Shown: positions 1 through 20,000 of the stretch, piece after piece
How the letters are laid out: each line of letters starts with the position of its first letter
Position numbering within the stretch: the stretch's first letter is position 1
NCBI GenBank assembly: GCA_008632985.1
Contig: QPGO01000280.1
Location: 55,029 to 75,028 of the forward strand
Length of the DNA: 20,000 bases
Reading direction: 5' to 3'
Origin: Psammoneis japonica
Lineage: Eukaryota
Position numbers and translations under genes: made by a program
Notes under the pieces: generated by a model
What the model was told of the DNA's origin: nothing
Databases searched by the model: none
The model's input: only the letters and a program-made list of their open reading frames with translations

Positions 1-1830
1 GCAGCTTCATTGAGCGCAGACGTGTCATGCTCTCTGTCCAGAATAAGATCCGCCACAATTGTGTCCCCTGATCAACCTGAGTCCACAGACAGAGGGGGAA
101 CAGTGGGAGGCGTCCCATCAGCTTGCCCAAAATGTTTCTGATTCCGTGTGCACAGTGCCGAAGCTGCTTCATCCAGAGCATCAACAGCAATCCAGTCCAT
201 GCATTCCTTTGGAGGGATCGCCGGATTCCGTGGAACTTGAACACTGTTGATCCCAGTGTCACGTTGAGCTCCGCACGACTTGATCTTCTGGAACAGCTTG
301 GTGGTCTCTGCTGCCTTGCGAAGGTTACGTAGAACAATCGCCTTTTTACGAGAAGCTGCAGCACTCTCCATTTCTAGCCAAGCAATCTTGTCGGCAATTT
401 CATTGTCTCGATGCTTGACGCTCTCAGCCGCGACCTGTCTACACTCATTCTGCGCTTGTCGTAAAGCTTGTTGACACTCTTCAAAGGCAGACGGGATCAT
501 GAATTTGCCACTCAGGCTGGTGCGGACATTTTGAATCTGAGCCGCATGATCAATGCGGGTCCGCATCATGGACAACACACGGGATAAGACACACACTCGA
601 CAACGTAAATCCGCCAACTGAGTCGACCACTCCGGTTCTCGGTGAAGGCGACACTTCTTTGCCACTGCTAAAGAAAACTGTGACAGATCCCCATCCAGCC
701 TTTCTGCCAATTCATGATCAGGAGTGATGGACTCCAAGAGTGAAGCAGACCTCTCCAAAACGTTCCGACTCTCTAGCATGGGATTGATGGTTTGTAGGCA
801 GGTGGCAACTTGAGGTTTCGAAGACGCTTGTAAGTCTCGAAAGGCTGTGCCTTCGGAAGATCAACAGTCGGGTTGCCAAAAAAAGCAATGGCATCAAAGT
901 CCACGAAGTTAGCGCGATGATCCGAAGCAATGCGGTGTCCAAATGCTTCACAGCCACCAAATCGTGCAGCGGCCAAAGCACCAGGGGCAGCTGAAACGAA
1001 ATCCAAGCGTTTTGACCCCCTTGTGCAAGTAGAAAATGCCGTGTTGCCTGTGAGAGAAAACATTGCATCGGAGAGATTGAACCATTGGGCCAAAGTGGAC
1101 AGAGAGTCGGTGTCAACAACGAAGTCCGTGTTAAAGTCCCCGAACAAAATAACCTCACGGTTGGAATCTGCAAGAAACTCTTGCAACAAACGAGACAGAT
1201 CAGTGCAAAATGCTTTGCGAGGGTCAAGGTGTTGGCGGCCTTGCTGACGCAAAAGATGAAGCTGCTGAGCGTGTGCTGTTGTTTTCCCAGGCCGTGTTTG
1301 ATTTTTGGCACAAACTCTGCAGCAGGAAATGAACATGACTTGTCTGCCATTTCTGCCATCAAATGTCTGGATAGACCAACGGCCTAACGGATCAGCCTCC
1401 TGAGAATGGCAGCGAGCAGACACCGCATTGCATGACAACAAAGCCGTGCCACCAGGTTTGTGTTGTGTAGAGAAAGGAGTTGAGCTGCAGGAAAAGGCAC
1501 CTCTGCCGTGATGGAGGGAGTTTGTCACTGCAGAACGGCAAACCGACAAAACCGAATGTTGAGCAGTGTCCAAACAAACTTCCGATGTGCCCACAATGTC
1601 AGCCTGCATCTCGTTTGTGATCTGACAGCACACAGCGAAGTCTCCTCCACGTTTGTCAAACTTGCTGCTGTTTGCATTGAAGGCGTGCAGTCTGGTGTGG
1701 TGTGAGAGCTTGGGCCCCACAGAGTCGCCAACGGAAACGTTTGTCTTCAGGCGGGAAAAATCGATGCATCATCTGGCAGAGGATTGAAACCGCCTGCCAT
1801 CCAAGAGAGTCTGCCATGTGGAAGAAGATG
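1..1830 (-). pseudogene. LINE ORF2 N-terminal part: apurinic-like endonuclease plus linker, disrupted
   Basis: ORF 773..1720 (APE motifs) joins ORF 72..779 through a frameshift at about 840-885 (the other frame reads RDLQASSKPQVATCLQTINPMLESRNV). There are in-frame TGA stops near 1770 and at 72-74, and the frame continues off the window. The true start is unresolved. Confidence 0.85.
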
Positions 1831-2089
1831 TGTCTGTTGAAACGGCACTGCTCATGGTTGGGCCACGCTCCTCCGAAGAGAAGACTGGGGCTCACAGCAC
1901 TGCCAGCAGGTTGAACCGAAGAATGAGGACACGGATGATTTGCAGATCTTGAAAGAAGGTTAAAGGTCCCATGACGGGAAGTCCGACGAAAAACATGAGA
2001 GAGAGCAGGCGGAGCAGATGCTCGGGAAAGGATGTCAGGAGGGCACCTTAATGTTTGAGGGGGTGGAGACGGCGAGATCCAACCCCTGG

Positions 2090-3899
2090 CTAAAAATCCT
2101 GCCCTTGGTCCGTTTGATCGTAGGAACATTCTGGAGTTTCCATGTGGTTGTGTTGTTTCTGAGCTGGAGGTGAAGCATGTTGAGATGTTTGGAGCATGGT
2201 GACCATCTGATTCATTTTGTCTTGCATGCTGGAAAACTGTTTGGTGTTGGCATCTTGCAACGCTGCCATGTCATTGGCATGCTGTTTTGAAAATGCACCG
2301 TGCAATGCGTCAATCTCCTTTGAGTGTTGAGCACAAAGTTCCACTGAGGCTTGATCAGTCTTGGCCTGCATTTGATTCAGCTGCTGTTGAACTTCAGCCA
2401 TCTGAGCAGACGTTAGAGACGAACTTGCAGATGACTGAGCAGCTTGAGCGCAAGAACAGGAAGGAGACTGCATGCCAGGATGTCCTTGCATCCCGCACGA
2501 ACACCCGAGAGGTTGTAAGGAGGATGGAGCGCACTCGTTCGACTGGGTAAAAACAGGTGGAGGAACGGCAGAACCTTGAGGAGTTCCGCAACCAGGCATG
2601 CCACCACGACCGGCCCCTCTGCCAGCAGACGGACGATTCAAGTGCGAAGGATCAGATTGGGGAGCTTGGGTGTCGGTTAACGGGGATGCATCCGAGAAAG
2701 TCAGTGATTCAAGGCTGCAAATGCTGGCTGACACAATGGACTTGCTGGCATCGGATTGCTCTTTGAACACTCCAGACACTTGGGGATGATCCGGAAAGGG
2801 AGGAGAAGTCCATGATTCTTCTGGAATGTTTGGAATTTCATCCACAACACATGTAGAGACAGTGGCATGGGCAGCTTTGAACTCGGCTCGTTTGACCAAA
2901 ATGTTGTAGCGTCCGGAGATGGTGTTTGTCGTGTGAATTGCCTTGACTCCTTTGATGGCTTTAATGTGATTTTCGAATTAAAACATCATGTCAGAATTCG
3001 TGTGCAGCAATGGAACCACACATGTGTCTTGATTGCGGTGGGCCTGAATTTTTGCAGCATTGTAAAAGGCAAGAGGAGACAAGCAACGAGTCTTGGCCAG
3101 GACAATGTGAGTCAGGAGCTTGTTGGAAGCACACAAAAGGGCTTTTCCTGCAGTGCGGTAATCGCCGAGCTGCACTTCAACAGCACAGGTCACTGCACGA
3201 ATCGGAGGAGCCAAATGGTCATTGTCCACATGAACAGCAGTCGGAATCAAAAAAAAAGAACTCGCCAAGATCCTTCGCAAACAATTTGGCAGCTTCTTCA
3301 ACAGGTGCATGCTTGGATGGAGTTGCAACACAGTGTGCCGGAGTGGCCGCATCAATGACAGATTCATTCCAACAGTGACGTTTCATGCCCACATTGTTCA
3401 AGTCAAGAACAGATTGAATGTGAGGGTGAGCACGAATTTCCTTAAGAGGCACCCCAGCCAGGATGCGATGACAAAGTCGATGAGTGACGGGACGTTTTTT
3501 GCCGCTACGAGTCGTTGAGACCACAAAGTGACGTTCATGCTGGAGGGAAGAAATCCACTCGGCCACGTTGACATTCGTAATTTGGTTGTTGTGGTTGTCA
3601 AAAATCCTTGCATCAGATTGGCATGTAAACAGAATCTGTTGTAGAGCTTGGAGGTGAGCCGCAGTGAGGGTCATGGGTTTGCACGACGCCTCCGGGCCAC
3701 GAATGTCAAAACGGAGAGTGATCTCCTTGAATTGTTGTTCTTTCGGCTTGGAAGAAACCTTGGTGGATGCATGATCAACGGTGACATCATCCGCCATGGT
3801 GTTGTCATTGTTCTTGGGAGGGGCATGGCTGCCGTCAGCAACGGAAGAAGACGCCATGGTGGGTCGGAAGTTCTGCGGAGAGCCTGGCATTGAAAACAT
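2090..3899 (-). pseudogene. LINE ORF1 (gag-like position), about 600 codons, with a Pro/Ser/Gly-rich segment and a C-terminal Gln-rich coiled coil; disrupted
   Basis: ORFs 3219..3899, 2978..3367 and 2090..2899 join through a probable frameshift at the A-run near 3250 and one in-frame stop at 2978-2980 (DMMF*FENHIKAIKGVKAIHTTNTISGRYNILVKRAEF). It lies directly upstream of the APE ORF on the same strand. Confidence 0.7.
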
Positions 3900-3931
3900 G
3901 CAGGTAAAATCAATGCTGACATTCGCAGAAT

Positions 3932-5602
3932 TGTGCGATCATGCAAGATGGAAAGCCAGCAGTGCATTGGTTGTGGAAGCTCAGTGCAGTGCAGCACAAT
4001 TGCTCAACCATTGAGAAGAAACTTCTCGTGGTGGCAATGTGTTTCAAAGAATTTCATTCCATGTTGCTTGGAGCGGATTGCACTGTTTTCACTGATCATA
4101 AAAATCTCACCTTTTGCACGCTCAACTCTCAACGAGTGCTCAGGTGGAGAGTCTTTTTGGAGGATTTTACCCCAACCTTTGAGCATGTTGATGGCAAGAA
4201 CAACCTGTCAGCAGATTGTTTTTTGTGATTGCCACGCATGGATCCACCAATGGAAGGGAAGTGTGCTCCAAACAAAGGCAAACTGACAGATTTCAAAGCA
4301 ATCGACACTGCCACGCTGCCTCATGAAGAGGAGCTCAACAACATGGATCGCGCATCTTGTTTTGCTTGCTGTCGGGAAGAGCCATCTCAGTTTCATTCCT
4401 CCTTTGTTGATGATCCGGAGCTGTGTGAATCATTCTTGAACTGCCCCTCACTTGATGAAATGCAAAACCCAACAACTGTGCAACAGATTCAGGAGCATCA
4501 ATTTGTTGATGTGGAGCTGAACAACATGAGACAACAATGCCCGGAACAATTCGTGATTGAACATGTGAACCAGCATCCTGTCATTTGCTGTTGTGCTCAT
4601 CCCAATGCTCTTGCAACAGAGTGGAAAATTTGTGTCCCCACTGTTTTGTTACCTGATGTGATCCACTGGCATCACAGGACATTGGGGCATGCAGGAATGC
4701 ACCGCATGCACTCAACTGTTGGCGCGCATTTTTGTCATCCTGTCCTTTGTTGGATTTGTGAGGAATTTCGTTGTGCTGAGTGTCAACACTTAGAAACTTT
4801 GGGTCCGGGACATGGAGAACTGCCTGAATGCAAAGCGTCCTTGCTGCCATGGAATGAAGTTGCAGTCGACCTCATTGGTCCCTGGAAGATTGACACTCAG
4901 GGCCAGGAGATTGAACTCAACACTTTGACTTGCATTGACGCTGTTTTGAATGTTGCTGAGCTTGTTTGCATCAACAACAAAACCTCCAAGCATGTTCCCC
5001 AGCAATTTGAAAATTGTTGGTTGTCTCATCATCCTCTTCCCAACCGTTGTGTTCATGACAATGGCGGAGAATTCATTGGAGAACACTTTCAACTGTTGTT
5101 GCAGCAGGCGGGAGTGGAGGATGTGCCCGCCACGTCCAGGAGCCCACAAGCCAATGCGGTGTGTGAACATGTGCATCAAACTGCTGGCAATGTCTTGCAT
5201 GCTTTGCCTCACCTTTGCCCTCCACAGAACATTGGGCAAGCCAACCAACTGGTGGATGATGCTTTGGCAATGACAATGCACGCAATGCGGTGTGCAGTGT
5301 CCCGAGCTCTCAAGGTCTCACCTGGTGCTGTGGTGCTTCATTGTGACATGACACAAGATCTGCCAGTGCTGGCAGATCTCGCCGCCATTCAAGAACATCG
5401 ACAAGCAATTGTTGGTGCAAATCTCCACAGAGCAAATGCCAAATGACGCTCCTGCGATTTTCAAGTTGGCAGCCAAGTGCTTGTCAAGACTGTTGGTCCC
5501 ACCAAGCTTGCACCTTGAGTGCATGGTCCTTGTCCCATTGTTCAATGGCTTCATGTGGTGGAGCAACTTGACGTTTGGCATGTCGCACCACATCGAGTTT
5601 GA
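3932..5602 (+). pseudogene. Ty3/Gypsy pol remnant: RNase H C-terminal part, integrase (zinc-binding region, DDE core, GPY/F region)
   Basis: RNase H motifs [40 protein letters not shown]. Integrase motifs HRTLGHAG, PWNEVAVDLIGPW, HDNGGEF, PQANAVCE, and GPCPIVQ (GPY/F). The order RH-INT is Gypsy-type. In-frame TGA stops at 4226, 5444 and about 5516 fall at expected Arg positions. Confidence 0.93.
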
Positions 5603-5711
5603 GGCCAAGGGTTTTTTCCCAACTCTTGGTCTTCCCTTGTTTCCTCTCATAAAATTTGAATTAGAATTTTAAAATTTTTGAGTCCCAAATGACTCTCATG
5701 ATTCGAGTCAT

Positions 5712-5723
5712 GGAAGGGAAGAG
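5712..5723 (+). other. Polypurine tract of the Gypsy element
   Basis: GGAAGGGAAGAG lies about 110 nt after the end of pol and is followed immediately by TG (tgcaatg), the canonical LTR start. Confidence 0.75.
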
Positions 5724-6072
5724 TGCAATGTCACGCACCCCATTTTTCTGATGTGTGGTGTCAATGATCCTGCCAGACACAAGAGGAGCCATTGTGATGG
5801 GCTTCGCTGAAAGCAACCTCATCACCTTGGTCTCTCTCTCACAACTTTGTTGTCACTCAAGTCTTTGTCTTGTTGGACCTTGCAGATCGAAGAGTGGAAA
5901 TGCATGTTTTTGAGAACGGCAATTTTGTTTGTGCAGTCATTTGGGGATCAAACCTCACCCAATCGGACACAATCGCCAATTCAAAAATTGAAACACCAAA
6001 GGTGGTGCTTGCTGAAATGGGCACATTGAAACACCATGTGTGGCGCTTGTTTCCGATTGGCGTTGAGCGAAG
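5724..6072 (+). repeat. Probable 3' LTR of the Gypsy element (right boundary not determined)
   Basis: Starts with TG directly after the PPT. There is no second LTR in the window to fix the end, so the end is placed at the MITE insertion. Confidence 0.45.
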
Positions 6073-6075
6073 TCA

Positions 6076-6921
6076 GGCTTGGTCTGCAGGTGAGCCGAGC
6101 TGGATCGGATCACTGGATCGACTCCTTCACAACCCAATGAAGTGTCAGTCCATCGAGTCAAAAAGTCGATCCGTGGCCTTCGTGGAACTGATCCGCCATC
6201 TCGGATCAGACGGTCTTCGAAGCAAAATGTTTTGCTCCGAAGACCGTCCGATCCGAAAATCCAGATTGGACGTCGGATCCAATTTGGAGGGTTCCATGCC
6301 ACCATCACGACAATGGCACAACATCACATGATTGTGACACAGAATGGCATGAGATTCAGCCATGAGGGCAAGGAACATTCTTGGCATTGTGGTCGAAGTC
6401 TTTCCATGCTCAAAATGAAGATGAGAAAGGTGGTGTGGCAACAGAGCAGCTTGTCAAACTGACAATGCGATGCAGATTTGTTGGAGAAACATTGAACAAG
6501 CAAAGTGACAAGCACCTGTCATGTGACTCGAAGTTTCAATGCGAAAACATTGCACTGGTTTCCCAGCTGCAAAAGTGACAGCTTTTTCTTCCTCAGCATT
6601 GCTGTGGACATTGAGTGACAACGATTCTCAATGATGCGGTCACATGTGCATGCAAAGCTGCGGCAACAGCATGGCTCTGTTGTCATGTCATTGCGTTGTG
6701 ACAAGATGTGAAGCATCATGGCCACACTTCTTGTTGTTCGCTGTTGTCAGTGCTTTGTCATTCTTGGGAGTTTGGAATCTTGAAACTTGTGTCGTTTTGC
6801 GACTCATCAAAATGTCAAATCCGATCCGCGATCCGATCCGGTTCCACCTGTCGACTAACGGAATTCTGACGCGATCCGATCCGTTGATCCGATCCGGCGC
6901 GGTTCACCTGCAGACCGAGCC
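6076..6921. mobile_element. Non-autonomous TIR DNA transposon (MITE), PIF/Harbinger-like, 846 bp
   Basis: 45-bp terminal inverted repeats at 6076-6120 (GGCTTGGTCTGCAGGTGAGCCGAGCTGGATCGGATCA...) and 6877-6921 match at 39/45. A 3-bp direct repeat TCA flanks both ends (6073-6075, 6922-6924). There are subterminal GATCC/GGATC repeats and no credible ORF. Confidence 0.82.
6201..6256. repeat. Near-perfect 56-bp palindrome inside the MITE
   Basis: Arms 6201-6227 and 6230-6256 match at 25/27 with a central TG. Confidence 0.9.
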
Positions 6922-7102
6922 TCATTCTTCTGAAGTTACCGTACTGAATGACGAAGAGGAAAGTCAACATTTTCCAAATAACAACAGTTTTATCCAAGAA
7001 ATGTGTGATTGAATATAAAATAATAATGAAATAAGAATAATACTTGAGTTGAATAGAGAAAATACAAGGACAAAAAATTTTGTCCTGCGGGTACAGAGAA
7101 AG

Positions 7103-7552
7103 TTAACAGTCCGGAAATGGACTCGAGTTTGGAGTAAATCTGGGAGCGTTAACACATGTGGCTGGGGTCGAAGATGGTCCGTAGCTTGCTGAACTACTGC
7201 AATCGAAGGTTCCACCTGTGGTAGTTGTGCAGCAAAGGGTGTTATCAGTGCCATTGCATCTGCCCACAGTACCATCAATGATGTCCTGACACACAGGGAG
7301 GTTTTCAATAACATTATCTGATATGACACAATATGTAGTGGGTGTGTCTGGGAGGGGACCATTGCCATCAGTGCCAAGGCATGAGTTGCCACAACTGGTG
7401 GAGCACGTTGTAGTGGAGACTGCTCCAAACTGATTCGAAACGCAATTGCTGCTAGCGGGGCAACATTTCGATTGCTGGCTCGAAGTGCCAGTGAGTGCCA
7501 AGTAGGCTAGATCGCAAAAATCATCTCTTGCACTTGTGCAGCCAGGATCAAC
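7103..7552 (-). other. Unique C-terminal cysteine-rich domain (about 150 aa, 16 Cys) of the giant protein
   Basis: Translation from [13 protein letters not shown] to PNSSPFPDC* has 16 Cys including two CC pairs and no hydrophobic TM or GPI tail. Confidence 0.85.
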
Positions 7553-10500
7553 TTGAGAAACGAGAGTAGTCAACGGGTCCGTGACAGGGTCCGTCTCGTC
7601 GCTATCGGCCGTGCCCACGTTCACGATCACGCCAGCTTCGACATCAGCCTGGGTGACCGTGTATGCCGTAGTCAGCACGCAGGGGTCACCTACTGCAACG
7701 GTAGCGCAAGTAGTGCTGCCACCCGTCAAGTCGTCGCTCACCACCACATTCGTCAGGGTGACGTCTCCATTGTTCGTCGCCGTAATGTTGTAAGTTAGAG
7801 TGTCGCCGAGACTCACGTCTTCCGAAAGGTCCTCGTCGGCATTACTCAGCAGTGTCTTGACTACAACCAACTGCGGGTTTTGCGCAACGGGAGTAGTCAA
7901 CGGGTCCGTGACAGGGTCCGTCTCGTCGCTATCGGCCGTGCCCACGTTCAGGATCACGCCAGCTTCGACATCAGCCGGGGTCACCGTGTATGTCGTAGTT
8001 AGCACGCAGGGGTCACCTACTGCAACGGTAGCGCAAGTAGTGCTGCCACCGGTCAAGTCGTCGCTCACCACCACATTCGTCAGGGTGACGTCTCCATTGT
8101 TCGTCGCCGTAATGGTGTAAGTTAGAGTGTCGCCGAGACTCACGTCGCCCGAGCCGTCCTGGTCGGCATTACTCAGCAGTGTCTTGACTACAACCAACTG
8201 CGGGTTTTGCGCAACGGGAGTAGTCAACGGGTCCGTGACAGGGTCCGTCTCGTCGCTATCGGCCGTGCCCACGTTCACGATCACGCCAGCTTCGACATCA
8301 GCCGGGGCGACCGTGTATGTCGTAGTTAGCACGCAGGGGTCACCTACTGCAACGGTAGCGCAAGTAGTGCTGCCACCCGTCAAGTCGTCGCTCACCACCA
8401 CATTCGTCAGGGTGACGTCTCCATTGTTCGTCGCCGTAATGGTGTAAGTTAGAGTGTCGCCGAGACTCACGTCGCCCGAGCCGTCCTGGTCGGCATTACT
8501 CAGCAGAGTCTTGACTACAACCAACTGCGGGTTTTGCGTAACGGGAGTAGTCAACGGGTCCGTGACAGGGTCCGTCTCGTCGCTATCGGCCGCGCCCACA
8601 TTCACGATCACGCCAGCTTCGACATCAGCCGGGGTGACCGTGTATGTCGTTGTTAGCACGCAGGGGTCACCTACTCCAACGGTAGCGCAGGTAGTGCTGC
8701 CACCCGTCAAGTCGTCGCTCACCACCACATTCGTCAAGGTGACGTCTCCATTGTTCGTCGCCGTAATGGTGTAAGTTAGAGTGTCGCCGAGACTCACGTC
8801 GCCCGAGCCGTCCTGGTCGGCATTACTCAGCAGAGTCTTGACTACAACCAACTGCGGGTTTTGCGTAACGGGAGTAGTCAACGGGTCCGTGACAGGGTCC
8901 GTCTCGTCGCTATCGGCCGTGCCCACGTTCACGATCACGCCAGCTTCGACATCCGCCGGGGTGACCGTGTATGTCGTCGTTAGCACGCAGGGGTCACCTA
9001 CTGCAACGGTAGCGCAGGTAGTGCTGCCACCGGTCAAGTCGTCGCTCACCACCACATTCGTCAAGGTGACGTCTCCATTGTTCGTCGCCGTAATGGTGTA
9101 AGTTAGAGTGTCGCCGAGACTCACGTCGCCCGAGCCGTCCTGGTCGGCATTACTCAGCAGAGTCTTGACTACAACCAACTGCGGGTTTTGCGTAACGGGA
9201 GTAGTCAACGGGTCCGTGACAGGGTCCGTCTCGTCGCTATCGGCCGTGCCCACGTTCACGATCACGCCAGCTTCGACATCCGCCGGGGTGACCGTGTATG
9301 TCGTCGTTAGCACGCAGGGGTCACCTACTGCAACGGTAGCGCAGGTAGTGCTGCCACCGGTCAAGTCGTCGCTCACCACCACATTCGTCAAGGTGACGTC
9401 TCCATTGTTCGTCGCCGTAATGGTGTAAGTTAGAGTGTCGCCGAGACTCACGTCGCCCGAGCCGTCCTGGTCGGCATTACTCAGCAGAGTCTTGACTACA
9501 ACCAACTGCGGGTTTTGCGTAACGGGAGTAGTCAACGGGTCCGTGACAGGGTCCGTCTCGTCGCTATCGGCCGCGCCCACATTCACGATCACGCCAGCTT
9601 CGACATCCGCCGGGGTGACCGTGTATGTCGTCGTTAGCACGCAGGGGTCACCTACTGCAACGGTAGCGCAGGTAGTGCTGCCACCGGTCAAGTCGTCGCT
9701 CACCACCACATTCGTCAAGGTGACGTCTCCATTGTTCGTCGCCGTAATGGTGTAAGTTAGAGTGTCGCCGAGACTCACGTCGCCCGAGCCGTCCTGGTCG
9801 GCATTACTCAGCAGAGTCTTGACTACAACCAACTGCGGGTTTTGCGTAACGGGAGTAGTCAACGGGTCCGTGACAGGGTCCGTCTCGTCGCTATCGGCCG
9901 CGCCCACGTTCACGATCACGCCAGCTTCGACATCCGCCGGGGTGACCGTGTATGTCGTCGTTAGCACGCAGGGGTCACCTACTGCAACGGTAGCGCAGGT
10001 AGTGCTGCCACCGGTCAAGTCGTCGCTCACCACCACATTCGTCAAGGTGACGTCTCCATTGTTCGTCGCCGTAATGGTGTAAGTTAGAGTGTCGCCGAGA
10101 CTCACGTCGCCCGAGCCGTCCTGGTCGGCATTACTCAGCAGAGTCTTGACTACAACCAACTGCGGGTTTTGCGTAACGGGAGTAGTCAACGGGTCCGTGA
10201 CAGGGTCCGTCTCGTCGCTATCGGCCGTGCCCACGTTCACGATCACGCCAGCTTCGACATCCGCCGGGGTGACCGTGTATGTCGTCGTTAGCACGCAGGG
10301 GTCACCTACTGCAACGGTAGCGCAGGTAGTGCTGCCACCGGTCAAGTCGTCGCTCACCACCACATTCGTCAAGGTGACGTCTCCATTGTTCGTCGCCGTA
10401 ATGGTGTAAGTTAGAGTGTCGCCGAGACTCACGTCGCCCGAGCCGTCCTGGTCGGCATTACTCAGCAGAGTCTTGACTACAACCAACTGCGGGTTTTGCG

Positions 10501-13500
10501 TAACGGGAGTAGTCAACGGGTCCGTGACAGGGTCCGTCTCGTCGCTATCGGCCGCGCCCACGTTCACGATCACGCCAGCTTCGACATCCGCCGGGGTGAC
10601 CGTGTATGTCGTCGTTAGCACGCAGGGGTCACCTACTGCAACGGTAGCGCAGGTAGTGCTGCCACCGGTCAAGTCGTCGCTCACCACCACATTCGTCAAG
10701 GTGACGTCTCCATTGTTCGTCGCCGTAATGGTGTAAGTTAGAGTGTCGCCGAGACTCACGTCGCCCGAGCCGTCCTGGTCGGCATTACTCAGCAGAGTCT
10801 TGACTACAACCAACTGCGGGTTTTGCGTAACGGGAGTAGTCAACGGGTCCGTGACAGGGTCCGTCTCGTCGCTATCGGCCGCGCCCACATTCACGATCAC
10901 GCCAGCTTCGACATCCGCCGGGGTGACCGTGTATGTCGTCGTTAGCACGCAGGGGTCACCTACTGCAACGGTAGCGCAGGTAGTGCTGCCACCGGTCAAG
11001 TCGTCGCTCACCACCACATTCGTCAAGGTGACGTCTCCATTGTTCGTCGCCGTAATGGTGTAAGTTAGAGTGTCGCCGAGACTCACGTCGCCCGAGCCGT
11101 CCTGGTCGGCATTACTCAGCAGAGTCTTGACTACAACCAACTGCGGGTTTTGCGTAACGGGAGTAGTCAACGGGTCCGTGACAGGGTCCGTCTCGTCGCT
11201 ATCGGCCGCGCCCACATTCACGATCACGCCAGCTTCGACATCCGCCGGGGTGACCGTGTATGTCGTCGTTAGCACGCAGGGGTCACCTACTGCAACGGTA
11301 GCGCAGGTAGTGCTGCCACCGGTCAAGTCGTCGCTCACCACCACATTCGTCAAGGTGACGTCTCCATTGTTCGTCGCCGTAATGGTGTAAGTTAGAGTGT
11401 CGCCGAGACTCACGTCGCCCGAGCCGTCCTGGTCGGCATTACTCAGCAGAGTCTTGACTACAACCAACTGCGGGTTTTGCGTAACGGGAGTAGTCAACGG
11501 GTCCGTGACAGGGTCCGTCTCGTCGCTATCGGCCGCGCCCACATTCACGATCACGCCAGCTTCGACATCCGCCGGGGTGACCGTGTATGTCGTCGTTAGC
11601 ACGCAGGGGTCACCTACTGCAACGGTAGCGCAGGTAGTGCTGCCACCGGTCAAGTCGTCGCTCACCACCACATTCGTCAAGGTGACGTCTCCATTGTTCG
11701 TCGCCGTAATGGTGTAAGTTAGAGTGTCGCCGAGACTCACGTCGCCCGAGCCGTCCTGGTCGGCATTACTCAGCAGAGTCTTGACTACAACCAACTGCGG
11801 GTTTTGCGTAACGGGAGTAGTCAACGGGTCCGTGACAGGGTCCGTCTCGTCGCTATCGGCCGCGCCCACATTCACGATCACGCCAGCTTCGACATCCGCC
11901 GGGGTGACCGTGTATGTCGTCGTTAGCACGCAGGGGTCACCTACTGCAACGGTAGCGCAGGTAGTGCTGCCACCGGTCAAGTCGTCGCTCACCACCACAT
12001 TCGTCAAGGTGACGTCTCCATTGTTCGTCGCCGTAATGGTGTAAGTTAGAGTGTCGCCGAGACTCACGTCGCCCGAGCCGTCCTGGTCGGCATTACTCAG
12101 CAGAGTCTTGACTACAACCAACTGCGGGTTTTGCGTAACGGGAGTAGTCAACGGGTCCGTGACAGGGTCCGTCTCGTCGCTATCGGCCGCGCCCACATTC
12201 ACGATCACGCCAGCTTCGACATCCGCCGGGGTGACCGTGTATGTCGTCGTTAGCACGCAGGGGTCACCTACTGCAACGGTAGCGCAGGTAGTGCTGCCAC
12301 CGGTCAAGTCGTCGCTCACCACCACATTCGTCAAGGTGACGTCTCCATTGTTCGTCGCCGTAATGGTGTAAGTTAGAGTGTCGCCGAGACTCACGTCGCC
12401 CGAGCCGTCCTGGTCGGCATTACTCAGCAGAGTCTTGACTACAACCAACTGCGGGTTTTGCGTAACGGGAGTAGTCAACGGGTCCGTGACAGGGTCCGTC
12501 TCGTCGCTATCGGCCGCGCCCACATTCACGATCACGCCAGCTTCGACATCAGCCGGGGTGACCGTGTATGTCGTTGTTAGCACGCAGGGGTCACCTACTC
12601 CAACGGTAGCGCAAGTAGTGCTGCCACCCGTCAAGTCGTCGCTCACCACCACATTCGTCAAGGTGACGTCTCCATTGTTCGTCGCCGTAATGGTGTAAGT
12701 TAGAGTGTCGCCGAGACTCACGTCGCCCGAGCCGTCCTGGTCGGCATTACTCAGCAGAGTCTTGACTACAACCAACTGCGGGTTTTGCGTAACGGGAGTA
12801 GTCAACGGGTCCGTGACAGGGTCCGTCTCGTCGCTATCGGCCGCGCCCACATTCACGATCACGCCAGCTTCGACATCCGCCGGGGTGACCGTGTATGTCG
12901 TCGTTAGCACGCAGGGGTCACCTACTGCAACGGTAGCGCAGGTAGTGCTGCCACCGGTCAAGTCGTCGCTCACCACCACATTCGTCAAGGTGACGTCTCC
13001 ATTGTTCGTCGCCGTAATGGTGTAAGTTAGAGTGTCGCCGAGACTCACGTCGCCCGAGCCGTCCTGGTCGGCATTACTCAGCAGAGTCTTGACTACAACC
13101 AACTGCGGGTTTTGCGTAACGGGAGTAGTCAACGGGTCCGTGACAGGGTCCGTCTCGTCGCTATCGGCCGCGCCCACATTCACGATCACGCCAGCTTCGA
13201 CATCCGCCGGGGTGACCGTGTATGTCGTCGTTAGCACGCAGGGGTCACCTACTGCAACGGTAGCGCAGGTAGTGCTGCCACCGGTCAAGTCGTCGCTCAC
13301 CACCACATTCGTCAAGGTGACGTCTCCATTGTTCGTCGCCGTAATGGTGTAAGTTAGAGTGTCGCCGAGACTCACGTCGCCCGAGCCGTCCTGGTCGGCA
13401 TTACTCAGCAGAGTCTTGACTACAACCAACTGCGGGTTTTGCGTAACGGGGAGTAGTCAACGGGTCCGTGACAGGGTCCGTCTCGTCGCTATCGGCCGCG

Positions 13501-16500
13501 CCCACATTCACGATCACGCCAGCTTCGACATCCGCCGGGGTGACCGTGTATGTCGTCGTTAGCACGCAGGGGTCACCTACTGCAACGGTAGCGCAGGTAG
13601 TGCTGCCACCGGTCAAGTCGTCGCTCACCACCACATTCGTCAAGGTGACGTCTCCATTGTTCGTCGCCGTAATGGTGTAAGTTAGAGTGTCGCCGAGACT
13701 CACGTCGCCCGAGCCGTCCTGGTCGGCATTACTCAGCAGAGTCTTGACTACAACCAACTGCGGGTTTTGCGTAACGGGAGTAGTCAACGGGTCCGTGACA
13801 GGGTCCGTCTCGTCGCTATCGGCCGCGCCCACATTCACGATCACGCCAGCTTCGACATCCGCCGGGGTGACCGTGTATGTCGTCGTTAGCACGCAGGGGT
13901 CACCTACTGCAACGGTAGCGCAGGTAGTGCTGCCACCGGTCAAGTCGTCGCTCACCACCACATTCGTCAAGGTGACGTCTCCATTGTTCGTCGCCGTAAT
14001 GGTGTAAGTTAGAGTGTCGCCGAGACTCACGTCGCCCGAGCCGTCCTGGTCGGCATTACTCAGCAGAGTCTTGACTACAACCAACTGCGGGTTTTGCGTA
14101 ACGGGAGTAGTCAACGGGTCCGTGACAGGGTCCGTCTCGTCGCTATCGGCCGCGCCCACATTCACGATCACGCCAGCTTCGACATCCGCCGGGGTGACCG
14201 TGTATGTCGTCGTTAGCACGCAGGGGTCACCTACTGCAACGGTAGCGCAGGTAGTGCTGCCACCGGTCAAGTCGTCGCTCACCACCACATTCGTCAAGGT
14301 GACGTCTCCATTGTTCGTCGCCGTAATGGTGTAAGTTAGAGTGTCGCCGAGACTCACGTCGCCCGAGCCGTCCTGGTCGGCATTACTCAGCAGAGTCTTG
14401 ACTACAACCAACTGCGGGTTTTGCGTAACGGGAGTAGTCAACGGGTCCGTGACAGGGTCCGTCTCGTCGCTATCGGCCGCGCCCACATTCACGATCACGC
14501 CAGCTTCGACATCCGCCGGGGTGACCGTGTATGTCGTCGTTAGCACGCAGGGGTCACCTACTGCAACGGTAGCGCAGGTAGTGCTGCCACCGGTCAAGTC
14601 GTCGCTCACCACCACATTCGTCAAGGTGACGTCTCCATTGTTCGTCGCCGTAATGGTGTAAGTTAGAGTGTCGCCGAGACTCACGTCGCCCGAGCCGTCC
14701 TGGTCGGCATTACTCAGCAGAGTCTTGACTACAACCAACTGCGGGTTTTGCGTAACGGGAGTAGTCAACGGGTCCGTGACAGGGTCCGTCTCGTCGCTAT
14801 CGGCCGCGCCCACATTCACGATCACGCCAGCTTCGACATCCGCCGGGGTGACCGTGTATGTCGTCGTTAGCACGCAGGGGTCACCTACTGCAACGGTAGC
14901 GCAGGTAGTGCTGCCACCGGTCAAGTCGTCGCTCACCACCACATTCGTCAAGGTGACGTCTCCATTGTTCGTCGCCGTAATGGTGTAAGTTAGAGTGTCG
15001 CCGAGACTCACGTCGCCCGAGCCGTCCTGGTCGGCATTACTCAGCAGAGTCTTGACTACAACCAACTGCGGGTTTTGCGTAACGGGAGTAGTCAACGGGT
15101 CCGTGACAGGGTCCGTCTCGTCGCTATCGGCCGCGCCCACATTCACGATCACGCCAGCTTCGACATCCGCCGGGGTGACCGTGTATGTCGTCGTTAGCAC
15201 GCAGGGTCACCTACTGCAACGGTAGCGCAGGTAGTGCTGCCACCGGTCAAGTCGTCGCTCACCACCACATTCGTCAAGGTGACGTCTCCATTGTTCGTCG
15301 CCGTAATGGTGTAAGTTAGAGTGTCGCCGAGACTCACGTCGCCCGAGCCGTCCTGGTCGGCATTACTCAGCAGAGTCTTGACTACAACCAACTGCGGGTT
15401 TTGCGTAACGGGAGTAGTCAACGGGTCCGTGACAGGGTCCGTCTCGTCGCTATCGGCCGCGCCCACATTCACGATCACGCCAGCTTCGACATCCGCCGGG
15501 GTGACCGTGTATGTCGTCGTTAGCACGCAGGGGTCACCTACTGCAACGGTAGCGCAGGTAGTGCTGCCACCGGTCAAGTCGTCGCTCACCACCACATTCG
15601 TCAAGGTGACGTCTCCATTGTTCGTCGCCGTAATGGTGTAAGTTAGAGTGTCGCCGAGACTCACGTCGCCCGAGCCGTCCTGGTCGGCATTACTCAGCAG
15701 AGTCTTGACTACAACCAACTGCGGGTTTTGCGTAACGGGAGTAGTCAACGGGTCCGTGACAGGGTCCGTCTCGTCGCTATCGGCCGCGCCCACATTCACG
15801 ATCACGCCAGCTTCGACATCCGCCGGGGTGACCGTGTATGTCGTCGTTAGCACGCAGGGGTCACCTACTGCAACGGTAGCGCAGGTAGTGCTGCCACCGG
15901 TCAAGTCGTCGCTCACCACCACATTCGTCAAGGTGACGTCTCCATTGTTCGTCGCCGTAATGGTGTAAGTTAGAGTGTCGCCGAGACTCACGTCGCCCGA
16001 GCCGTCCTGGTCGGCATTACTCAGCAGAGTCTTGACTACAACCAACTGCGGGTTTTGCGTAACGGGAGTAGTCAACGGGTCCGTGACAGGGTCCGTCTCG
16101 TCGCTATCGGCCGCGCCCACATTCACGATCACGCCAGCTTCGACATCCGCCGGGGTGACCGTGTATGTCGTCGTTAGCACGCAGGGGTCACCTACTGCAA
16201 CGGTAGCGCAGGTAGTGCTGCCACCGGTCAAGTCGTCGCTCACCACCACATTCGTCAAGGTGACGTCTCCATTGTTCGTCGCCGTAATGGTGTAAGTTAG
16301 AGTGTCGCCGAGACTCACGTCGCCCGAGCCGTCCTGGTCGGCATTACTCAGCAGAGTCTTGACTACAACCAACTGCGGGTTTTGCGTAACGGGAGTAGTC
16401 AACGGGTCCGTGACAGGGTCCGTCTCGTCGCTATCGGCCGCGCCCACATTCACGATCACGCCAGCTTCGACATCCGCCGGGGTGACCGTGTATGTCGTCG

Positions 16501-19500
16501 TTAGCACGCAGGGGTCACCTACTGCAACGGTAGCGCAGGTAGTGCTGCCACCGGTCAAGTCGTCGCTCACCACCACATTCGTCAAGGTGACGTCTCCATT
16601 GTTCGTCGCCGTAATGGTGTAAGTTAGAGTGTCGCCGAGACTCACGTCGCCCGAGCCGTCCTGGTCGGCATTACTCAGCAGAGTCTTGACTACAACCAAC
16701 TGCGGGTTTTGCGTAACGGGAGTAGTCAACGGGTCCGTGACAGGGTCCGTCTCGTCGCTATCGGCCGCGCCCACATTCACGATCACGCCAGCTTCGACAT
16801 CCGCCGGGGTGACCGTGTATGTCGTCGTTAGCACGCAGGGGTCACCTACTGCAACGGTAGCGCAGGTAGTGCTGCCACCGGTCAAGTCGTCGCTCACCAC
16901 CACATTCGTCAAGGTGACGTCTCCATTGTTCGTCGCCGTAATGGTGTAAGTTAGAGTGTCGCCGAGACTCACGTCGCCCGAGCCGTCCTGGTCGGCATTA
17001 CTCAGCAGAGTCTTGACTACAACCAACTGCGGGTTTTGCGTAACGGGAGTAGTCAACGGGTCCGTGACAGGGTCCGTCTCGTCGCTATCGGCCGCGCCCA
17101 CATTCACGATCACGCCAGCTTCGACATCCGCCGGGGTGACCGTGTATGTCGTCGTTAGCACGCAGGGGTCACCTACTGCAACGGTAGCGCAGGTAGTGCT
17201 GCCACCGGTCAAGTCGTCGCTCACCACCACATTCGTCAAGGTGACGTCTCCATTGTTCGTCGCCGTAATGGTGTAAGTTAGAGTGTCGCCGAGACTCACG
17301 TCGCCCGAGCCGTCCTGGTCGGCATTACTCAGCAGAGTCTTGACTACAACCAACTGCGGGTTTTGCGTAACGGGAGTAGTCAACGGGTCCGTGACAGGGT
17401 CCGTCTCGTCGCTATCGGCCGCGCCCACATTCACGATCACGCCAGCTTCGACATCCGCCGGGGTGACCGTGTATGTCGTCGTTAGCACGCAGGGGTCACC
17501 TACTCCAACGGTAGCGCAGTAGTGCTGCCACCGGTCAAGTCGTCGCTCACCACCACATTCGTCAAGGTGACGTCTCCATTGTTCGTCGCCGTAATGGTGT
17601 AAGTTAGAGTGTCGCCGAGACTCACGTCGCCCGAGCCGTCCTGGTCGGCATTACTCAGCAGAGTCTTGACTACAACCAACTGCGGGTTTTGCGTAACGGG
17701 AGTAGTCAACGGGTCCGTGACAGGGTCCGTCTCGTCGCTATCGGCCGCGCCCACATTCACGATCACGCCAGCTTCGACATCCGCCGGGGTGACCGTGTAT
17801 GTCGTCGTTAGCACGCAGGGGTCACCTACTGCAACGGTAGCGCAGGTAGTGCTGCCACCGGTCAAGTCGTCGCTCACCACCACATTCGTCAAGGTGACGT
17901 CTCCATTGTTCGTCGCCGTAATGGTGTAAGTTAGAGTGTCGCCGAGACTCACGTCGCCCGAGCCGTCCTGGTCGGCATTACTCAGCAGAGTCTTGACTAC
18001 AACCAACTGCGGGTTTTGCGTAACGGGAGTAGTCAACGGGTCCGTGACAGGGTCCGTCTCGTCGCTATCGGCCGCGCCCACATTCACGATCACGCCAGCT
18101 TCGACATCCGCCGGGGTGACCGTGTATGTCGTCGTTAGCACGCAGGGGTCACCTACTGCAACGTAGCGCAGGTAGTGCTGCCACCGGTCAAGTCGTCGCT
18201 CACCACCACATTCGTCAAGGTGACGTCTCCATTGTTCGTCGCCGTAATGGTGTAAGTTAGAGTGTCGCCGAGACTCACGTCGCCCGAGCCGTCCTGGTCG
18301 GCATTACTCAGCAGAGTCTTGACTACAACCAACTGCGGGTTTTGCGTAACGGGAGTAGTCAACGGGTCCGTGACAGGGTCCGTCTCGTCGCTATCGGCCG
18401 CGCCCACATTCACGATCACGCCAGCTTCGACATCCGCCGGGGTGACCGTGTATGTCGTCGTTAGCACGCAGGGGTCACCTTACTGCAACGGTAGCGCAGG
18501 TAGTGCTGCCACCGGTCAAGTCGTCGCTCACCACCACATTCGTCAAGGTGACGTCTCCATTGTTCGTCGCCGTAATGGTGTAAGTTAGAGTGTCGCCGAG
18601 ACTCACGTCGCCCGAGCCGTCCTGGTCGGCATTACTCAGCAGAGTCTTGACTACAACCAACTGCGGGTTTTGCGTAACGGGAGTAGTCAACGGGTCCGTG
18701 ACAGGGTCCGTCTCGTCGCTATCGGCCGCGCCCACATTCACGATCACGCCAGCTTCGACATCCGCCGGGGTGACCGTGTATGTCGTCGTTAGCACGCAGG
18801 GGTCACCTACTGCAACGTAGCGCAGGTAGTGCTGCCACCGNNNNNNNNNNNNNNNNNNNNNNNNNNNNNNNNNNNNNNNNNNNNNNNNNNNNNNNNNNNN
18901 NNNNNNNNNNNNNNNNNNNNNNNNNNNNNNNNNNNNNNNNNNNNNNNNNNNNNNNNNNNNNNNNNNNNNNNNNNNNNNNNNNNNNNNNNNNNNNNNNNNN
19001 NNNNNNNNNNNNNNNNNNNNNNNNNNNNNNNNNNNNNNNNNNNNNNNNNNNNNNNNNNNNNNNTTCACGATCACGCCAGCTTCGACATCCGCCGGGGTGA
19101 CCGTGTATGTCGTCGTTAGCACGCAGGGGTCACCTACTGCAACGGTAGCGCAGGTAGTGCTGCCACCGGTCAAGTCGTCGCTCACCACCACATTCGTCAA
19201 GGTGACGTCTCCATTGTTCGTCGCCGTAATGGTGTAAGTTAGAGTGTCGCCGAGACTCACGTCGCCCGAGCCGTCCTGGTCGGCATTACTCAGCAGAGTC
19301 TTGAACACAACCAACTGCGGGTTTTGCGTAACGGGAGTAGTCAACGGGTCCGTGACAGGGTCCGTCTCGTCGCTATCGGCCGCGCCCACATTCACGATCA
19401 CGCCAGCTTCGACATCGCCGGGGTGACCGTGTTGTCGTTCGTTAGCACGCAGGGGTCACCTACTGCAACGGTAGCGCAGGTAGTTGCTGCCACCGGTCAA

Positions 19501-20000
19501 GTCGTCGCTCACCACCACATTCGTCAAGGTGACGTCTCCATTGTTCGTCGCCGTAATGGTGTAAGTTAGAGTGTCGCCGAGACTCACGTCGCCGAGCCGT
19601 CCTGGTCGGCATTACTCAGCAGAGTCTTGACTACAACCAACTGCGGGTTTTGCGTAACGGGAGTAGTCAACGGGTCCGTGACAGGGTCCGTCTCGTCGCT
19701 ATCGGCCGCGCCACATTCACGATCACGCCAGCTTCGACATCCGCGGGGTGACCGTGTATGTCGTCGTTAGCACGCAGGGGTCACCTACTGCAACGTAGCG
19801 CAGGTAGTGCTGCCACCGGTCAAGTCGTCGCTCACCACCACATTCGTCAAGGTGACGTCTCCATTGTTCGTCGCCGTAATGGTGTAAGTTAGAGTGTCGC
19901 CGAGACTCACGTCGCCCGAGCCGTCCTGGTCGGCATTACTCAGCAGAGTCTTGACTACAACCAACTGCGGGTTTTGCGTAACGGGAGTAGTCAACGGCGT
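7103..20000 (-). CDS. Giant repetitive, acidic Thr/Val/Asp-rich extracellular (adhesin-like) protein of more than 4200 aa, 5' end outside the window; tandem DUF11/DUF7507-like Ig-fold repeats plus a Cys-rich C-terminus
   Basis: Uninterrupted 2108-codon ORF 7103..13429, continued upstream by the same repeat in ORFs 13401..15200, 15194..17488 and others separated by single-base indels. The repeat motif [27 protein letters not shown] matches the 'conserved repeat domain' pattern. Stop codon at 7103-7105. Confidence 0.85.
7553..20000 (-). repeat. Tandem coding array, 327-bp unit, about 38 copies in the window, nearly identical
   Basis: Exact 327-nt periodicity (for example, antisense shadow ORFs start at 7800, 8127, 8454, 8781 and so on). 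The array continues past the window end. Confidence 0.98.
18841..19063. other. Assembly gap (223 N) inside the tandem array
   Basis: Run of N. The flanks are in nearly correct repeat phase (222 nt expected), and indel density rises around the gap. Confidence 0.99.

Follow-up and report, generated by a model that had tools for sequence, protein, structure and literature searches.

The transposon-derived DNA at positions 1-6921 of a 20,000-nucleotide stretch of the genome of the diatom Psammoneis japonica (positions 55,029 to 75,028 of the forward strand of contig QPGO01000280.1, assembly GCA_008632985.1; hereafter the window) contains no TA dinucleotide in the context RTAY (R, purine; Y, pyrimidine), and this absence is best explained as the end state of a TA>TG/CA hypermutation of inserted transposon DNA. 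The affected part holds remnants of a long interspersed nuclear element (LINE), a Ty3/Gypsy retrotransposon and a miniature inverted-repeat transposable element (MITE), and is followed by a host gene (Table 1). Contigs of this genome (G000) are written below as C with a number and the genome loci retrieved from it as L with a number, the window being C280:55029-75028.

Loss of TA from inserted transposons

Only 48 TA sites survive in positions 1-6921, an observed/expected ratio (o/e) of 0.11, alongside ratios of 1.59 for TG, 1.54 for CA and 0.63 for CG. By tetranucleotide the survivors are ATAA 5, ATAG 1, CTAA 4, CTAC 2, CTAG 2, GTAA 10, GTAG 8, TTAA 8, TTAC 4 and TTAG 4, with ATAC, ATAT, GTAC and GTAT, and also CTAT and TTAT, missing, giving class totals of RTAY 0, RTAR 24, YTAY 6 and YTAR 18. 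RTAY is absent from the LINE part (39 TA in 1-3880) and the Gypsy part (8 TA in 3881-5760) alike, and the MITE keeps a single TA where its closest intact copy (L032) has 39. A preliminary description made from the sequence had noted this absence, the return of RTAY just outside the MITE and an expectation of about one RTAY in four TA sites, and all three points hold. The probability of 0/48 under a null of 0.25 is 1.0e-6, and that null is fair because TA-rich relatives carry 20-31% RTAY (49/193, 29/142, 78/255 and 8/41); a test conditioned on the 5' and 3' base totals of the window gives less support (Fisher p = 0.022). The rule is one of degree and not absolute, since 8 of 146 TA sites in the 20 kb upstream of the window are RTAY. 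The skew of RTAR (24) over YTAY (6) follows element orientation: on the sense strand of the LINE the counts are YTAY 21 and RTAR 4, against 78 and 29 in an intact LINE relative. Eight contig pieces from run X1 match the window with 0-1 letters different; X1 may be the assembly's own sample, and the agreement therefore argues only against consensus error.

Comparison between copies shows that the TA>TG/CA change arises after insertion, on both strands about equally and as nearly pure A:T>G:C transitions. Among 24 MITE copies examined, 15 have a TA o/e of ~0.6 and nine, the window's included, have 0.00-0.17; over 828 sites L034 differs from the intact L035 by 44 A>G/T>C changes, three C>T/G>A changes and no transversions. 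For a sister family of the window's Gypsy element, 20 copies were aligned pairwise to one natural TA-rich copy, with transversion divergence of ~0.0-0.5% over long alignments. This copy (L106:3572-8959, C196:99571-104958), with a TA o/e of ~0.5-0.6 and 163-bp long terminal repeats (LTRs) that are 97.5% identical, stands among ~20 heavily mutated siblings and allows the mutation to be polarized. The 3427 changes at TA comprise 1858 to TG and 1541 to CA (together 3399), ten to CG and 18 others. Strand bias relative to the element was considered and rejected (x0.90). Pairwise TG/CA concordance between copies is only 0.54-0.79, so that hits are largely independent, and the rarity of CG (10/3427) indicates that a first hit protects its partner and that a 5' T is required. 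The per-base hazard at TA is 15 times that of CpG in this family, non-CpG C>T amounts to ~0.3%, and adenines outside and distant from TA carry a private change in 44 of 22016 copy-sites. Such a signature distorts both the dating and the annotation of transposable elements (TEs) in this lineage.

Loss of CpG varies widely between mutated blocks (CG o/e 0.23-1.0), and at L108:1-2500 (C403) TA and CG are both nearly erased, grading into unmutated DNA. The contig pairs C41/C317, C297/C301 and C323/C595 share near-identical genes or TE copies and are probably uncollapsed alleles.

The host gene beyond the MITE serves as an internal control. It comprises at least ~37 near-identical 327-bp (109-aa) DUF7507/DUF11-like units and a Cys-rich C-terminal part, and 28 of its 29 full-length units have 13 TA each, the TA o/e over 6945-20000 being 0.95; at six gene loci sampled from the genome the ratio is 0.43-0.67. 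The gene is interrupted by a 223-N gap (18841-19063), and single-base indels in its distal units may be assembly errors.

Table 1. Features of the window, in window coordinates
Feature	Position	Strand	Basis and remarks
LINE-like non-LTR retrotransposon, 5' part; endonuclease domain 776-1768	1-3900	-	PF03372, E 2e-7; 67 genome matches; right edge (~3900) approximate, taken from related loci
Degenerate Ty3/Gypsy pol, 3' part	3920-5885	+	RNase H 3920-4228, PF17917, E 5e-13; 62 genome matches
Gypsy integrase-like stretch	4229-5446	+	PF00665, E 8.5e-4, below cut-off
Gypsy purine tract; probable 3' LTR	~5712-5723; ~5729-5885	+	LTR edges inferred from match starts and ends
MITE-like element, 46-nt terminal inverted repeats	6075-6922		Sequence comparison with genome copies
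First RTAY (GTAC)	6941-6944		Beyond MITE arm end at 6922; TA density normal again just outside MITE
Host gene of near-identical 327-bp DUF7507 tandem units	7103-20000	-	Internal control, without TA depletion

Sequence context and the RRTAYY motif

The preliminary description had predicted that TA would be lost in the order RTAY > RTAR/YTAY > YTAR, and survival over TE copies does depend on flanking bases in this order in two families. In the Gypsy family TA survives at 45/968 RTAY, 99/545 RTAR, 262/1184 YTAY and 245/423 YTAR observations, and in a LINE family at 2/134, 7/81, 23/222 and 23/103, respectively. The LINE counts come from a sister family, used because none of the 30 loci retrieved held a close, TA-rich copy of the window's own subfamily; five of its nine copies were used, the other four being likely alleles or duplicates. 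For the Gypsy family we fitted a competing-risk model with one hazard per strand and one dose per copy to 161 internal sites (3120 observations), leaving out 13 sites that are probable reference-copy changes and the element ends (810 and 560 bp).

A pyrimidine directly after the edited A (+1) raises the rate by a factor of 3.0 (site-bootstrap 95% confidence interval [CI] 2.35-3.99), in support of the TAY target proposed in the preliminary description. That target is incomplete, much of the preference being symmetric about the TA: a purine at -2 raises the rate by a factor of 1.7, a purine at -3 by 2.2 and a pyrimidine at +2 by 1.9. The cross-validated negative log-likelihood falls from 3311 to 3023 with the +1 pyrimidine and to 2762 when purine at -3, A at -2 and C at +2 are added (each about twofold), so that the flank terms improve the fit about as much as the +1 term did. 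A per-base model of positions -3 to +2 trained on Gypsy improves the prediction of the held-out LINE family (509 to 445) and rates the surviving TAs of the window as slow sites (p 1.6e-7). In Gypsy the -2/+1 pair has a symmetric part of 0.86 and a strand-specific part of 0.35, and the -3/+2 pair 0.69 and -0.07; the LINE values are 0.57 and 0.33, and 0.73 and 0.14, respectively. At -4/+3 the strand-specific term (-0.27, -0.34) disfavors a pyrimidine at +3.

Survival falls steeply with the number of matches (0 to 4) to the flanks of RRTAYY, being 147/193, 177/400, 273/1047, 52/1111 and 2/369 in Gypsy and 13/37, 30/111, 11/202, 1/154 and 0/36 in the LINE. Of the 48 survivors in the window, 31 match at 0-1 positions and none at all four, compared with 52 and 13 of 193 TA sites in an intact LINE. 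The motif is thus shown to be a largely palindromic RRTAYY with an extra twofold tilt to the strand with the 3' pyrimidine, and a pure TAY model is beaten by the hexamer model. TAAA lowers the rate (x0.31, CI 0.18-0.49), and TACG has a factor of 0.74 (CI 0.44-1.07), in which CpG methylation could mask an effect; a T-tract term (TTTA) was dropped as not significant beside the other terms (x0.72, CI 0.40-1.18). In pooled 500-bp windows from retrieved loci (1013 depleted and 269 intact, duplicates removed roughly) the tetranucleotides rank from ATAT (0.03), ATAC (0.15), ATAG/CTAT (0.29) and GTAC (0.38) up to TTAA (3.36), and the four-class rule therefore has exceptions.

Mode of action, targeting, and candidate enzymes

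The choice between TG and CA within a copy shows no correlation at 2-4000 bp in any of eight distance classes (|z| <= 1.5), which argues against long single-stranded tracts or an RNA/cDNA stage. At short range, adenines 1-3 nt from an edited TA are shown, albeit post hoc, to comutate on the same strand. Of 113 private A>G changes outside TA in the Gypsy family, 42 have a TA adenine of the same strand at a distance of 1-3 nt (opportunity 525/2396, p 2e-4). With each copy and site contributing a single event (15 copies, 39 sites), the neighboring TA is edited on the same strand in 31 of 40 cases, where 18.8 are expected (p 3e-6), or 23.2 when compared with edited sites only (p 0.0013). The effect is confined to A>G and shows no excess at 4-25 nt from TA, and the controls in this family are flat for C>T (12/40, expected 17.7) and G>A (27/45, expected 26.0). 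The longest bystander run lies in a Gypsy copy on C521, where a TA opens a series of four adjacent A>G changes. Secondary sites at a distance from TA still favor a pyrimidine 3' of the A (27/9494 vs. 17/12522, p 0.02; LINE 85/2483 vs. 40/2913) and show no preference for a 5' C, with small counts of 10/6675 for CA, 19/7842 for AA and 15/7499 for GA (chi-square p 0.18 for the 5' base in the unfiltered set). The commonest of these sites is AAT (13/71 events); a raised AAT rate in MITEs (32/333) shrank once polarized on private changes.

LTR pairs of one element are often discordant, keeping 13/13 and 0/15 TA on C5 and 4/13 and 15/15 on C187, and element ends are often spared. A very high-copy, young and mostly unmutated 388-bp MITE (L171-L200; 1535 search candidates), of which mutated copies occur at L039, L054 and L165, keeps 761 of 809 TA in 30 alignments, although its young age could also explain this. 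The discordant LTRs, the untouched tandem array and the spared MITE argue against homology pairing of repeats, and we infer that targeting follows chromatin domain or state. Intact MITEs lie within TA-erased flanks and therefore postdate the last exposure there, and surviving TAs cluster weakly over 60-300 bp (z up to 4.5, against an imperfect null).

On balance we favor, with some confidence, a DNA adenine deaminase with a distributive mode of action, RRTAYY in duplex DNA as its site and an editing window a few bases wide. The putative enzyme would engage the duplex at the deformable TA step, open a few bases and convert A to inosine, which is read as G; single hits would accumulate over many cell generations, in silenced chromatin and aimed by chromatin state instead of repeat pairing. 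Several points weigh against such a deaminase. Site-to-site scatter is large, and the bystander effect was found and tested in one and the same Gypsy family; in MITEs it is apparent when distant sites serve as the reference (9/198 vs. 16/1306, p 0.003), though without significance when the other strand does (3/172, p 0.15), and it was not observed in the more diverged LINE (2/168 vs. 7/278, background 2.3%, offset +1 omitted). No candidate stands out among matches to PF00383, PF02137, PF14437 and PF14439, with no expanded or unusual family in a search that covered these deaminase folds only, and according to a 2022 paper (PMC10188366) no natural deoxyadenosine deaminase was known.

The deaminases matched are dCMP-deaminase-, TadA-, ADAT2- and RibD-/guanine-deaminase-like, together with two A_deamin genes, and look like a housekeeping set plus the second A_deamin gene. 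The TadA-like gene is at L093 and the ADAT2-like gene, with HAE, CEPC and CRNDRF motifs, at L096; the named relatives of the ADAT2-like protein are from diatoms. The second A_deamin (ADAT1/ADAR-like) gene, at C79:344171-345887 (L102:1114-2830) besides one at C40, is a candidate from a family that acts on RNA. At C79:87318-88790 (L095:313-1785, minus strand) a single open frame encodes a zinc-dependent deaminase domain together with DIOX_N and 2OG-Fe(II) oxygenase domains. PF00145, the C5 DNA methyltransferase family, has 27 matches (on C43, C10, C59, C78, C27, C301, C297, C34 and others), at least five near full length and some with stops; C297 and C301 also hold LINE copies.

The alternatives differ in the lesion or enzyme that they invoke. 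The initial lesion could instead be a thymine at TpA in the context RTA (for example, a T that pairs with G after enzymatic oxidation). Alternatively, adenine might first be modified and only later mutated, in the way that methylation comes before mutation in repeat-induced point mutation (RIP). Every count fits a thymine lesion equally, because a TA>TG change read from the opposite strand is T>C, and from sequence alone a lesion at the A of TAY looks the same as one at the T of RTA; a symmetric duplex motif would also suit a DNA-modifying enzyme, and copies that lost more TA tend weakly to have lost more CpG (Spearman 0.47, p 0.037). We nevertheless consider either form unlikely. No thymine modification is known to us that gives near-complete T>C conversion. 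For adenine, the known eukaryotic sites of N6-methyladenine are given as ApT in active genes rather than TEs, and Phaeodactylum as having only 5-methylcytosine, in 10.1101/2024.10.28.620566. A search for MT-A70 found no match, but neither did its control search, and it therefore carries no weight. A canonical tRNA editor, either an organellar-type TadA or ADAT2/3, moonlighting on single-stranded DNA would be a special case of the deaminase favored here, and one that we rate as distinctly unlikely. Amphioxus ADAT2 reportedly has DNA activity (PMC10354150), and the TadA-like and ADAT2-like genes are present, but as housekeeping genes their presence says little. The 5' T and 3' pyrimidine fit the YAY preference of evolved TadA (PMC10188366, PMC12528748), yet CA is no secondary target, a 5' A is not disfavored and TACG does not appear to be faster, so the TadA-family specificity suggested in the preliminary description is not established and its interpretation is supported only in part. 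Eight substrate tRNAs are listed for ADAT2/3 (PMC11802342); by the genetic code, a pyrimidine follows A34 in the Arg tRNA alone and a U in none of them, yet TAT is as fast as TAC.

Error-prone polymerases of the eta/iota type give many transversions and AA hits. One of these filling short repair patches in silenced TE DNA by T:G misinsertion is improbable here, given that transversions account for at most 18 of the 3427 changes at TA, AA is not above CA or GA, and bystanders are A>G only with no same-strand correlation at 4-60 nt. Short patches could yield the 1-3 nt bystanders, AAT is the commonest distant site, and WA hotspots and tandem mutations are described in somatic hypermutation (PMC6423074). 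RNA editing of the ADAR type, or reverse-transcription error, fixed at transposition is largely refuted and very improbable: MITEs with terminal inverted repeats, which presumably have no RNA stage, are mutated alike, both strands are mutated in each copy without strand runs, the LTRs of one element differ, and TAG is slow (x1.6 vs. x4), although two A_deamin-domain genes are present and ADAR favors a 5' U (Mettrop preprint). The comparison of paired copies refutes composition, selection or assembly artefact, the remotest of these possibilities. The TAR/TAY balance of ancestral elements probably owes something to avoidance of stop codons, but near-identical sister copies keep their TAs, noncoding MITEs behave alike and the X1 contigs reproduce the window.

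Comparison with known systems

In RIP of Ascomycota, which is premeiotic and involves the RID/DIM-2 methyltransferase, dinucleotide-specific C:G>T:A transitions confined to repeats with sharp edges are triggered by duplication and affect both members of a direct repeat. The process described here resembles RIP in its dinucleotide-specific transitions, its confinement to repeats and its sharp edges, but has the opposite polarity (A:T>G:C, removing TpA, with CpG decay 15 times slower), and direct LTR pairs are unequally mutated while a perfect tandem array and a high-copy MITE are spared. TadA and the editor ABE7.10 share with it A>G change with a 5' T and a 3' pyrimidine, as well as bystander edits in a small window. 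Evolved TadA favors YAY and disfavors a 5' A (PMC10188366), whereas here CA is not above AA or GA, no optimum is apparent at TACG, the DNA counterpart of the native U-A-C-G context, the hexamer is symmetric, and the process is natural and unguided. The WA mutagenesis of polymerase eta in somatic hypermutation likewise has a TA hotspot and an excess of A>G; in contrast, there are almost no transversions here and AA is not favored.

The closest parallel is the TpA hypermutation of integrated nucleocytoplasmic large DNA virus (NCLDV) and virophage DNA in Bigelowiella natans (bioRxiv 10.64898/2026.01.13.699255), for which the preprint reports 230 of 231 changes as AT>GC, all at TpA, in a single-copy target, with ongoing de novo mutation at ~1000 times background and ADAT2 as a hypothesis, the deaminase being unproven. 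Both systems show TpA>TpG/CpA on both strands with transitions restricted to TpA (here 3399/3427), are confined to foreign or mobile DNA (here a TE block with o/e 0.11 against 0.95 in the adjoining gene, at sampled loci), are uneven between lines or copies (here 15 intact and nine mutated MITEs, and discordant LTRs), and are independent of copy number, the NCLDV region being single copy. They differ in eukaryotic group and in that LINE, Gypsy and MITE copies are near saturation here; a de novo rate was measured there, whereas here the process is traced by comparing copies. The main text of the preprint contains neither a flank analysis nor a mention of diatoms, though its supplements may hold flank data, and our literature search, which left most subscription papers outside, returned no title or abstract on TpA loss in diatom TEs.

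As a tentative possibility, diatoms may carry a natural, chromatin-guided double-stranded DNA adenine deaminase with a palindromic RRTAYY preference and a 1-3 nt window that sterilizes transposons, an adenine counterpart of RIP that would be either common to diatoms and Bigelowiella or convergent between them, and that would represent a new class of A-to-G enzyme. If true, such an enzyme would matter for the evolution of genome defence and for base editing. The signature is testable, since any candidate must reproduce in vitro the strict 5' T, the RRTAYY gradient, pure transitions, the lack of long-range strand coordination and the same-strand bystanders at 1-3 nt. Hypermutation at TpA has been described once before, without an enzyme, and the present analysis adds a sharper enzymatic signature for which the 231 de novo mutations of Bigelowiella can be scored, bearing on shared ancestry versus convergence.

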